A stretch of DNA of 19,509 nucleotides from a bacterium (GTDB taxonomy: Bacteria > UBA8248), in the NCBI GenBank assembly GCA_963692865.2, contig CAXXHI010000005.1, positions 1-19,509 of the forward strand, given 5' to 3'. Shown in pieces: positions 609-18,612 of this stretch. Positions within the stretch are counted from its first letter, which is position 1; each line of letters starts with the position of its first letter. The notes under the pieces were generated by a model, which saw nothing but the letters and a program-made list of their open reading frames with translations, searched no databases and was not told the DNA's origin. The position numbers and the translations under genes are program-made.

Positions 609-1956
609 TTAGGCGGAGCCCCGAATCCACCGCGCGGACGCAGCGAGCCGCTCCTTCGCCCGGTTAATCTTTTCTGAATCTATGAGCAGCTCACCGCCCG
701 CCTTCACCTTCTCGCCGCCGATGAATACGGTGTCCACGTCCGAGCGCTCCGCGTAGAAGACGACGGCGCGGGCGGCGTCGCCTGCGGGCGTCACGGCGAG
801 GCCGTCTTTTCGGATCAGGATGAAGTCGGCCTGCTTGCCGGGCGTGACCGAGCCGATTCTCTCCGCCATGTCCAGCGCGTGCGCGTTGTTGATGGTGGCC
901 CACGCGAGGGCGTCGCGCGCCGAGAAGGAGAGAGCGGGCGCGCGGCAGGTGTTCTCGTCCAGGCGGCGGTTGTCGAAAATGCGCTGGACCTGCAAAGCGT
1001 GCCGCACCGCGTGGAGCATGTTCCCGCTTACGTAGGTTTCGAGGTCCACGCCGATGGACGGCCTGCCGCCGAGCGCGCTCACGCGCCCGCAGACGGCCTC
1101 GCCCCGGTTCGTCTGCATCTCGGCCGATGGGGTGGCCGTGATGGATGCGCCCGAGTCGATGATCACCCGGAGTTCCTCATCGTCCACGTAGTTGCAGTGC
1201 ACCAGGTTGTGGTCGGGGCCGAGAACGCCCTCTCTGGCCAGAGTGTGGTAGCCGCCCTGCACCTTCCTGCCCGCGTCGCCCCAGATGTGCGCGCTCGACA
1301 GCAGCCCGTATTCGCGCGCCAGACGCATGTCGTGGAGCGCTACTTCGAGGGGAGAATAGTCGGCGCCCAGAATGGCCATCGCCAGGGTGACGCGGGCCTC
1401 ATCGGAAGCCAGGCGGCCCGTCCGCAGCCGCCTGATCTCGCCTTCGGGATGCGGGATTTGCGAATAGTGAGGTTCGCCCTCCCTGGGCTTCGGCTTGGGC
1501 GTTCCGTGCCCGAAAAGGGCGCGGATGCCGGATTCCTCCAGGGCGTCTATCCCTGCGTTCGGTGTGCTCGGGCGTGGGGTTGTTGTGGCACCAGTCGAAC
1601 AGCGTCGTGGTTCCTGCGTCCATCTGCGCCCACGCGCCCACGAGGGTTGCGATATATATGTCCTCGGGCCGGTAGCGCGGGGCGAGCGTCTCGTGCGCGA
1701 TCTCGAAATAGCTGCGCCCGCCCCAGTCGCCGCCCAGGCCCCGAAGCGCGGTCTGCCAAGTGTGCATGTGGGCGTTGATGAGGCCGGGCAGGAGGATCAT
1801 GCCGCTGGCGTCGATGGTTTCGGCGTCCGGCGCGGAGAGGTTTTCTCCCACCTCGGCGATCAGCCCGTCCTCGATCAGGACGCCGCCACCCTCGATCTCC
1901 CCGACCTCGGGGTCCATCGAGACGATGCTTGCGTTTTTGATGAGGGTTTTCGCCAT
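609..1956 (-). CDS. Metal-dependent amidohydrolase (SsnA/TRZ-ATZ deaminase-like), interrupted by one +1 frameshift near 1558
   Basis: N-terminal TLIKNASIVSMDP...ILLPGLINAHMHTWQ (HxH), then AHIWG, LVHCN, IGVD and IGSVTPGKQADFILI. Removing one base from CAC ACC GAAC GCA joins ORFs 1399..1983 and 609..1379 as ...PEHTDAGIDALEESGIRALFGHGTPK...VTLAMAILG. ATG at 1956 chosen as start. Confidence 0.85.
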
Positions 1957-2045
1957 ATCAGCTTCCCGCTTAGAGGAACTCATCTGGCAAGGAGGGTTTT
2001 TTCATGAATCAATGTTTCCGGAGTCTACGACTTGCGTGTTATGGA

Positions 2046-2261
2046 TCAAACGGCCTTTAAGGAGCGCAGGGGCAGCGCCTCGGTCTCCAGCGTAGAGAGG
2101 TCGATACGCCGCGACGCATGGTCGATGTCGAAGCCGACCACGCCGCCATCGGCGGCGATGTCCACATTGAGTCCGTCTGAAACCTCGCGTGTCTCCGCTC
2201 CCGGTTCGGTTCTAAACTCAATATAAAGGCTGTCGGTTTCGGGATAATAATGAAGTTTCAT
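2046..2261 (-). CDS. DUF2283-domain small protein (putative antitoxin-type)
   Basis: MKLHYYPETDSLYIEF...ETREVSDGLNVDIAADGGVVGFDIDHAS fits the DUF2283 pattern. GAAGGA precedes the ATG at 2261. Confidence 0.8.
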   Translation of the reverse strand: MKLHYYPETDSLYIEFRTEPGAETREVSDGLNVDIAADGGVVGFDIDHASRRIDLSTLETEALPLRSLKAV

Positions 2262-2342
2262 GGTCCGTCCTTCGAACTGGCCCGTGTAATTCTCCATTTT
2301 GTAGCAGATAAAGGTTTCTATCGCTATAAGCGACGCTTGCCC

Positions 2343-2989
2343 TCAGCTTCCCGCCTCGGGGTATTCGTCCGGCCAGTCGGCGAGCAGGGCTTCGAGATAG
2401 GCCTTGAGGTCATCTGGATTTTTTTCGCGGATTTTGTTCCTGTCGATCTCCTCTTGCGCCTCGATGGGAATCGCCAGTGCGTCGTTGAACTTGTTCCTCA
2501 TGTTGAAATAGGTGATCACCATGGTGAGCTCCACGATCTCCGCGTCGGTGAAATGCCGCTTGACCTCTTGGAATATGTCGTCCCGCTCCCTGGCCGTGTT
2601 GAGCGTCACGTGCTCCGCCCAGAGCAGGACGGCGCGCTCCTTTTCGGTGAAGGGGCCGTAGTCGCCCTTGCCGATGGCGGTGATATCTTCTTCCGAGATT
2701 CCGACCGATTGACCAACCGGCGTGTTGTGTGCGCCAGTCAGTAGGCGCAGTCGTTGAGACGGCTGGTGTTGATGATGGCGAGTTCCTTCGTCTTCGTGTC
2801 GAGGGCCGAACCAAGGCCCTGGCGCAGGAGCGATGAGGTGAGTGGCAGCATGAACTTCGTGATGTAGGGCTGGTTCGCCATCACGCGCCAGGCGTTGGGG
2901 ATCCGGTTCAGCAGGACGCTTGCGTGGTCGAAGAGGTGGTTCACGACGGGGTCGTCGGCGCCTGATTCGAGCATGGGTACGCGGGACAC
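2343..2989 (-). CDS. AhpD/carboxymuconolactone decarboxylase-family protein, probable selenoprotein (CxxU), with a small indel just after the TGA
   Basis: AAGGAG RBS then GTG at 2989. Reads ...LDTKTKELAIINTSRLNDCAY-TGA(2740-2738), and after a frame correction continues HNTPVGQSVGISEEDITAI...FTEKERAVLLWAEHVT...VKRHFTDAEIVELTMVITYFNMRNKFNDAL, a typical CMD/AhpD C-terminal half. Confidence 0.8.
2704..2721 (-). promoter_or_regulatory. Candidate bacterial SECIS hairpin
   Basis: GCCGGUU-GGUC-AAUCGGU: 7-bp stem with two G-U pairs and a G-led tetraloop, starting 17 nt 3' of the UGA. Confidence 0.6.
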
Positions 2990-3201
2990 GGGGTCACTCC
3001 TTTCGGGGTTACGGGTTTCGGGGGAACGGCCCATTCTCCGATGAAACGCGGATTTTTGGAACCGCGGCGGGCTTCCAAGCCCCGGCTTGCGCCGCGATGC
3101 CGTTCTTTGGCGGGAGTTGTGCAGGGAGGAGGTTTGTTGAACCATATAATTCGTGAGCGCCTTTTGATTCTCACTGGTACGCAGCGCTGAAGGAGTGAAA
3201 G

Positions 3202-18536: not shown

Positions 18537-18612
18537 GTGTAGGGGTCGCATATCATGCGACCCGCATTGTAAAGACGAAAAGGCCGGGCCGCATGATATG
18601 CGGCCCCTACAC
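18537..18612. repeat. GTAG-family REP doublet, copy 3
   Basis: GTGTAGGGGTCGCATATCATGCGACCCG ... CGGGCCGCATGATATGCGGCCCCTACAC. Confidence 0.9.

Follow-up and report, generated by a model that had tools for sequence, protein, structure and literature searches.

A predicted selenocysteine-decoded AhpD-like gene from a UBA8248 bacterium and its frameshifted copy on a strain-variant contig

The 19,509-nt contig CAXXHI010000005.1 of the metagenome-assembled genome (MAG) GCA_963692865.2 (Bacteria; UBA8248) was analysed over its whole length and is referred to here as the window. Its minus strand carries, between positions 2989 and 2343, a gene resembling the AhpD/carboxymuconolactone decarboxylase (CMD) family, in which a TGA codon stands where the second Cys of the CxxC redox motif is expected. 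An earlier annotation, made without database searches and termed here the sequence-only reading, had proposed that this was a hidden selenoprotein gene with a selenocysteine insertion sequence (SECIS)-like hairpin, and had noted an indel close to the TGA. The locus therefore raises the question of whether the TGA encodes selenocysteine (Sec), terminates translation or is the by-product of a changed Cys codon, and of what the indel represents. As far as can be judged from sequence, it is very probable that this is a genuine Sec-decoded AhpD-like gene and that the copy in the window is broken by a 2-nt insertion; this assessment is separate from the question of whether the insertion is an error or is real.

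The reading frame and its intact counterpart

Translation of the minus strand from the GTG codon at 2989..2987 gave VSRVPMLESG...TSRLNDCAY followed by TGA at 2740..2738, as the sequence-only reading had said. Reading straight through the TGA in the same frame gave only basic, low-complexity junk with three further TGA codons and a stop 44 codons on, and was rejected. The CMD-like sequence that had been described beyond the TGA was present (TGAHNTPVGQSVGISEED..., TGAHNTPVGQSVGISEEDITAIGKGDYGPFTEKER...; 133 residues to the stop at 2345..2343), but in the -1 frame only, as an earlier caveat had allowed. As written, the window copy could only yield a truncated product of approximately 127 residues and no full protein.

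A second copy of the gene was found on the main, 3.94-Mb contig of the same genome (C1). It was 97% identical to the window copy and lacked two nucleotides precisely in the interval from the TGA to the hairpin; where C1 has GCG CAC AAC ACG the window has GCGCACACAACACG, the 2-nt insertion lying within the CACACA at 2731..2726. This insertion is the indel that had been suspected, and it deprives the window copy of an uninterrupted reading frame. The C1 copy (protein P0005) ran in one frame for 214 codons, a single TGA among them, and encoded C81-A-Y-U84-L-A-H-N-T-P-V-G-Q-S, which is exactly the product that had been preferred beforehand, when the removal of AC from the window sequence was seen to give C-A-Y-U-L-A-H-N-T and a 214-aa protein.

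The intact protein matched the CMD family PF02627 with 36.6 bits (cut-off 23; 4.6e-9), whereas the N-terminal half of the window copy alone scored 19.7 bits and its C-terminal half alone had no Pfam hit; the C-terminal half did match the NCBIfam model NF053654, 'YciW-related (seleno)protein', at 7e-16. The gene had been described as invisible to standard gene callers, and in keeping with this the nearest database proteins were 19 clusters of C-terminal fragments of 120-122 aa. These public gene calls for the orthologues, some of them labelled 'Nitrospinae bacterium', cover 56% of the protein.

Conservation of the UGA and of the downstream hairpin

Full-length orthologues (match 1-214, 77-93% identical) with exactly one TGA were present in 21 of the 22 other genomes of the genus; the remaining genome, G009, showed paralogues only. 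Among the extracted orthologues, comprising the C1 copy and those of 19 other species, the TGA was at codon 84 in 20/20, and all had a GTG start and the motif CAYULAHN. All 19 other-species orthologues encoded the full C-A-Y-U-L-A-H-N-T motif.

Pairing of TGA with Cys was also evident outside the orthologue group, where an alignment of homologues had been suggested beforehand as a check. A scan of species-representative genomes, seeded with peptide patterns that included NDCAYCLA and hence favouring that motif, gave 68 loci, of which 31 had TGA followed by xxHN and the other 37 had TGC or TGT in the same column. The TGA loci were from MAGs labelled Nitrospinota, Nitrospinae or Nitrospinaceae, or without a taxon label, together with one Tectomicrobia, and the Cys loci, which showed CAYCLAAH-type spacing, were from Gemmatimonadetes, Proteobacteria, Bacteroidota and others. 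The spacing of the motif (CxxC-xx-HN or CxxC-xxx-HN) had been named as a further point to compare. Three full-length Cys homologues of 225-234 aa (P0039, P0041 and P0042) had C-x-Y-C-Y-A-H-N-T in the same columns and shared the xxHN spacing of the TGA loci; the CAYCLAAH type was that of the more distant Cys homologues.

The hairpin GCCGGUU-GGUC-AAUCGGU was located just as the sequence-only reading had placed it, starting at the 17th nucleotide after the TGA, with its three parts at 2721..2715 (GCCGGTT), 2714..2711 (GGTC) and 2710..2704 (AATCGGT). The spacer between the UGA and the hairpin was 16 nt in the window and 14 nt in intact copies. Nine paralogues on C1 belong to the subtype C-x-x-U-x-x-H-N-[TVA], and when these were aligned from the UGA, without gaps, columns 18-35 contained a 7-bp stem in all nine, with a loop of GGUC in eight of them and of GGCC in one. 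Across this alignment 85.7% of the cells were paired, compared to 66.1 ± 3.8% in shuffled alignments (0/500 reached the observed value), and sliding the partner strand by 1-3 columns reduced pairing to 27-48%. Compensatory changes on both sides were found in five of the seven stem pairs, a number reached in 11/500 shuffles, and RNAalifold returned exactly the same helix with the alignment alone as input. The closing pair of the stem changes between U-A and C-G across the paralogues, and the codon following that of Gly changes with it between CAA (Gln) and CGA (Arg).

Synonymous variation was low in the same region. Among the 20 orthologues the synonymous codon entropy was 0.21 for codons 85-95 versus 0.52 for the other 178 degenerate codons, and the lowest sliding windows of the gene were those of codons 78-92, with variation depressed over codons 78-95. 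The codons GTT, GGT and CAA, which had attracted attention as atypical T/A-ending codons, accounted for 18%, 13% and 27% of the Val, Gly and Gln codons, respectively, in 922 long open reading frames (ORFs; GC content at third codon positions 0.72). These minority codons were nevertheless fixed in 20/20, 20/20 and 19/20 orthologues.

The genome matched NF053654 at 17 places; twelve of these had exactly one TGA and one had two, with the TGAs at the CxxU position, and twelve AhpD-like genes with a predicted Sec at the CxxC position were located on C1. The paralogue with two in-frame TGAs (G000:C1:249195-249785, plus strand; locus L069:196-786) has them three codons apart, within G-G-U-Y-G-U-A-M-N-H, which forms a U-x-x-U motif. 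In 14 other genomes of the genus the full-length orthologue, 74-93% identical, likewise has both TGAs, and this paralogue passed the TIGR01926 model with 89.5 bits (cut-off 81.8). Where a 2026 review lists AhpD-like proteins, it gives them only as CxxU with one Sec; this paralogue is possibly an undescribed double-Sec variant.

Selenocysteine machinery, known relatives and neighbouring genes

The genome contains complete Sec machinery, all components scoring over their family cut-offs: selD (334.6 bits), selA (567 bits), selB (392 bits), which adjoins selA, and tRNA-Sec (76.7 bits). A search for the sel genes had been put forward as a check on the Sec proposal, with a genome lacking selABC counting against it; selA, selB, selD and tRNA-Sec were all there. 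The selD gene (G000:C1:65915-66877, minus strand) itself has one in-frame TGA, and its sequence suggests that selenophosphate synthetase (SelD) is probably also a selenoprotein here.

Among NCBIfam models, NF053654, a (seleno)protein equivalog, was the nearest to the intact protein (74.7 bits, E 7.5e-21), and TIGR01926 (peroxidase-related enzyme), which the 2026 review uses as its model for 'AhpD-like protein', gave 53.0 bits. The best solved relatives were the PA0269-type CMD proteins 2ijc, 2o4d and 7xw1 (E 4e-13 to approximately 5e-13 over residues 45-171, which include the CAYC motif column). The AhpD structure 6k40 matched at 1.2e-7, and the CMD-fold debrominase Bmp8 was a weak PDB match (E 2e-5). 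The PA0269-type proteins differ from the protein described here in having Cys in place of the predicted Sec, in their CxxCxxxH spacing and in being shorter (145-165 aa), without the C-terminal 40 residues. Five homologues of 337-365 aa (P0006, P0009, P0011, P0015 and P0020) have, besides the domain itself, part of a second copy at the N-terminus and have lost both redox residues (A-x-Y-S-L-A-H); from their sequences these are presumably non-redox relatives.

The window gene is a further member of the already catalogued AhpD-like CxxU family (COG2128/TIGR01926-related), with which it shares the CMD/AhpD fold, a UGA at the second Cys position, coding sequence conserved both before and after the UGA, Cys homologues that are widespread, a hairpin just 3' of the UGA whose small apical loop contains G, and Sec machinery in the genome. 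The family was first reported in 2005 from the Sargasso Sea metagenome, with 27 sequences assigned to COG2128 and SECIS elements whose small apical loop is described as containing G (PMC1088965). In the Global Ocean Sampling data 'AhpD-like 1' is given as one of the commonest families (299 selenoproteins, beside 902 Cys homologues; PMC2398784). The subfamily of the window differs from the catalogued family in falling under the TIGR01926 and NF053654 cut-offs, in its U-x-x-H-N spacing, in the presence of nine paralogues of this subtype and twelve putative Sec-containing AhpD-like genes in one genome, and in the frameshift of the window copy.

The characterised prototype, AhpD of M. tuberculosis, likewise belongs to fold family PF02627; a His lies close to its CxxC-type redox pair, and a Glu precedes the first Cys by 12 residues, as E69 precedes C81 here. 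In the window protein the second Cys would be replaced by Sec and the His is one residue closer (U-x-x-H versus C-x-x-x-H), so that the CxxC-xxx-H spacing of AhpD proper is replaced by CxxU-xx-H. A further difference is that no ahpC partner was found among the ten neighbouring window ORFs scanned.

In BSepDB (2026), 'Nitrospinota'/UBA8248 MAGs count among the richest bacteria, at 48-54 selenoprotein genes, and FO_M_Nitrospinota_01 is listed with 54 (PMC13326102). The latter MAG holds a 48% identical paralogue of the window gene, and orthologues and paralogues of the window gene occur in MAGs labelled Nitrospinota, Nitrospinae or Nitrospinaceae. A literature search combining selenoprotein, Nitrospinota and sponge found no paper with all three among the matches listed.

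The features of the locus are collected in Table 1. Along the locus, a divergent GFO/IDH/MocA oxidoreductase gene is followed by the AhpD-like gene, an optional DUF2283 gene (present in 8/20 and 5/13 orthologous loci) and an amidohydrolase gene. The amidohydrolase follows the AhpD-like gene in 18/20 and 12/13 orthologous loci, in seven of which it begins 6 nt past the stop codon. In the window it is split into ORFs 1399..1983 and 609..1379, whereas on C1 it is intact (457 aa; 507 bits, cut-off 391) and it is in one piece in 12/12 orthologous loci that have the gene. The sequence-only reading had placed the selenoprotein gene in a catabolic neighbourhood, on the same strand as an amidohydrolase; the shared strand and the adjacency were borne out, the latter only among the orthologues of one genus, and no adjacent amidohydrolase was found beside paralogues or Cys homologues (55 loci, L095-L149). 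The pairing is accordingly regarded as a lineage-specific hint and not as a family-wide functional link.

Table 1. Positions of the AhpD-like gene, its signals and its downstream neighbours in the window.
Feature	Position	Strand	Remarks
AhpD-like (CMD-fold) CxxU gene, predicted selenoprotein, frameshifted here	2343..2989	-	Intact form is 214 codons plus stop
AGGAG ribosome-binding site	2997..3001 (3001..2997)	-	Precedes the GTG start (2989..2987) by 7 nt
TGC, Cys81, first residue of the CxxU redox motif	2747..2749	-	TGC in 20/20 orthologues
TGA, predicted Sec codon U84, column of the second Cys of CxxC	2738..2740	-	TGA in 20/20 orthologues and 31/68 wider loci
CACACA, including the extra CA dinucleotide	2726..2731	-	CACA in relatives
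SECIS-like hairpin, 7-bp stem GCCGGUU/AAUCGGU, GGUC apical loop	2704..2721	-	Covariation, RNAalifold, low synonymous variation
TGA, true stop of the gene, downstream frame	2343..2345	-	Frame reading
DUF2283 small gene, between the AhpD-like gene and the amidohydrolase gene	2046..2297	-	PF10049 at 4.7e-15
Amidohydrolase gene (NF006056/PRK08204 subfamily), immediately downstream, same strand, frameshifted	609..1983	-	One extra base near 1559

Alternative explanations and the origin of the insertion

Several results weigh against the interpretation of the locus as a Sec-decoded AhpD-like gene. The intact protein is below the NF053654 cut-off of 310 bits, and is not a member of that equivalog, and it is also below the TIGR01926 cut-off of 81.8 bits. 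Folding of the SECIS region as a single sequence did not favour the hairpin, with z-scores of -0.32 (intact copy) and 0.00 (window copy); the minimum free energy structure instead paired nt 2-9 with nt 17-24. In this orthologue group it corresponds to an alternative 8-bp hairpin (window 2716-2739, minus strand) formed by the UGA region (GACUGGCG) and CGCCGGUU, which excludes the SECIS stem. This alternative was not predicted by RNAalifold across the paralogues. No Rfam model matched, the only two hits, CRISPR-DR23 and snoR28, being sub-threshold and due to chance. As a predicted element, the hairpin is supported by covariation and not by single-sequence thermodynamics.

Three other explanations of the TGA and the frame change were considered. 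The locus might be an ordinary Cys AhpD/CMD gene that has lost one base from a TGY codon, in which case the motif would be C-A-Y-C-T-G-A-H-N-T and the TGA accidental; the sequence-only reading had itself allowed for this. One added base does restore the three residues that separate the second Cys from the His in the classical CMD/AhpD motif, and the more distant Cys homologues do read CAYCLAAHT. However, T-G-A-H after the motif was absent from every relative, the indel that separates the window gene from its 97% identical counterpart on C1 is of 2 nt and not of 1 nt, Cys forms with the same xxHN spacing exist, and TGA, two residues and HN were found in 20/20 orthologues and at 31/68 wider loci. 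The one-base-missing reading was ruled out by the C1, orthologue and 68-locus comparisons and has a negligible probability. If, instead, the TGA were a true stop, the locus would consist of two small genes, or of a gene that is dead throughout the genus, and no Sec would be inserted. The gene callers, which annotate only the 120-122-aa downstream fragment, agree with this explanation; but protein conservation is uninterrupted across the TGA in 21/22 genomes of the genus, the TGA aligns with the catalytic Cys and splits the CMD fold, of which only the whole protein passes the Pfam cut-off, a covarying hairpin lies at a fixed distance in nine paralogues, and the Sec machinery is complete. Termination at the TGA is therefore considered very unlikely. 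Programmed frameshifting, or a regulatory role of the frame change, could be proposed since the shift in the window lies between the recoded UGA and the hairpin, where ribosomes pause. This too has scarcely any probability, given that CACACA is unique to the window contig and the relatives need no frameshift, that a +1/-2 shift at CACACA would have no slippery-site logic, and that the neighbouring amidohydrolase gene also has an unrelated frameshift.

If the gene is Sec-decoded as proposed, the product would be an AhpD-like thiol/selenol oxidoreductase of the carboxymuconolactone-decarboxylase fold with Sec as the second residue of C-x-x-C. In bacterial Sec decoding, SelB loaded with GTP and Sec-tRNA(Sec) binds the hairpin at its apical part when a ribosome arrives at the UGA. 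In the intact gene the ribosome would reach UGA84, and the hairpin 14 nt on, within the sequence coding for T-P-V-G-Q-S, would recruit SelB and Sec-tRNA(Sec); translation would then continue to give C81-A-Y-U84-L-A-H87-N-T. The nucleophilic attack in AhpD-type proteins is made by the second member of the CxxC pair, which makes this the place where selenium is of advantage. By analogy with AhpD, U84 may be the attacking nucleophile and C81 may resolve the selenenyl-sulfide (Se-S bond), and H87 and E69, the latter twelve residues before C81, may form a proton relay. The substrate would likely be of the peroxiredoxin type or a small-molecule oxidant.

The origin of the 2-nt insertion has to be considered in light of the contig that carries it. 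The window is the entire contig C6 of an eight-contig genome, in which each of the seven small contigs (C2-C8; 17-50 kb) is colinear with a stretch of C1 and duplicates it at 96-99% identity; the window aligned to C1:3659831-3680834 and was 97-98% identical to it overall. The small contigs are strain-variant contigs that were binned with the main genome and are not paralogous duplications. Genes are duplicated by them, tRNA-Sec for example being present on both C1 and C4, and they probably account for the 6.69% contamination figure of the genome. Six small indels relative to C1 were crowded into 43 nt at window 18554-18596, around an inverted-repeat-like sequence (GCCGCATG.TATGCGGC), and probably mark a variable intergenic hairpin or terminator.

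The extra CA was found only in the window. It was absent from C1, from the 19 other-species orthologues and from 13/13 orthologous loci (L082-L094), a set that overlaps with the 19 species. It was also absent from the spanning contigs of 4/4 public runs, each with two nucleotides left out at 2726, although these contigs represent other strains, none 99% or more alike, and cannot show the window's own allele. None of the public runs listed had half or more of the stretch's words, and there was no RNA run among them. Substitutions on the window branch, polarised using the other species as outgroups, comprised 4 synonymous, 0 non-synonymous and one ambiguous change in the AhpD-like gene, and 9 synonymous and 3 non-synonymous changes in the amidohydrolase gene, one of the latter being merely a change of stop codon from TGA to TAA. 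Together, the two broken genes had 13 synonymous versus 2-3 non-synonymous changes, which is ordinary purifying selection; therefore, if the frameshifts are real, both must be very recent.

The balance of these results leans modestly towards an assembly consensus error and away from a real, very recent frameshift. The contrary explanation, that the insertions in both genes are real, a minor strain having very recently lost a two-gene module and retained a young selenoprotein pseudogene, is credible though short of probable; it opposes only the assembly-error part of the explanation and leaves the Sec-decoded gene as it stands. In its favour, 157 of 207 indels of non-3n length between the small contigs and C1 were outside gene-like ORFs, and in the window itself 11-12 of 14 lay outside genes; since the indels avoid genes the assembly looks clean, and hence this points to real frameshifts. 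A stricter gene-break test was symmetric, with 8 breaks in C1 and 8 in the small contigs, one of the 8 assigned to C1 being this Sec gene, misclassified since its TGA was counted as a stop. Furthermore, the two breaks are 1.2 kb apart in adjacent, co-oriented genes whose adjacency is conserved, which would suit the loss of a functional module, and each insertion duplicates 1-2 nt in tandem, as is common among spontaneous mutations. Against real frameshifts are the lack of relaxed constraint on the window branch, the intact start codon, ribosome-binding site, UGA, hairpin and stop, which mean that two independent frameshifts would both need to be very recent, and the absence of the extra-CA allele from every public run, although none of these contains the window's strain. 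A crude count, in which breaks in the small contigs seemed to outnumber those in C1 by 33:1, was withdrawn as an artefact of indel clusters within approximately 20 codons of gene ends, and a gene-by-gene break test (39/175 versus 32/175) was confounded by fragments of broken genes.

A more far-reaching combination of ideas is improbable as a whole. It would hold that in this lineage, known here from sponge metagenome data, a radiation of the AhpD-like fold has produced at least 12 Sec paralogues with co-evolving SECIS elements, including one conserved U-x-x-U; that the orthologue group and a PRK08204-type amidohydrolase constitute a fixed module of two genes, with selenol enzymes acting on small molecules, for example by Bmp8-like reductive dehalogenation, and not on peroxiredoxins; and that the window has captured the strain-level loss of one such module.

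For annotation, the Sec-decoded gene proposed here provides a clean worked example of a selenoprotein gene shortened by public gene calls, with fragments of 120-122 aa standing for a 214-aa protein. The window also calls for caution, since a small contig from a variant strain, binned into a metagenome-assembled genome, can contain frameshifts found nowhere else, and these can either imitate a recoding event or conceal one. As for the SECIS hairpin, which lies within a coding region, its support from covariation across the nine paralogues is unusually good. In terms of biology, the gene would add one more AhpD-like selenoprotein to a lineage already noted for its large selenoproteomes.

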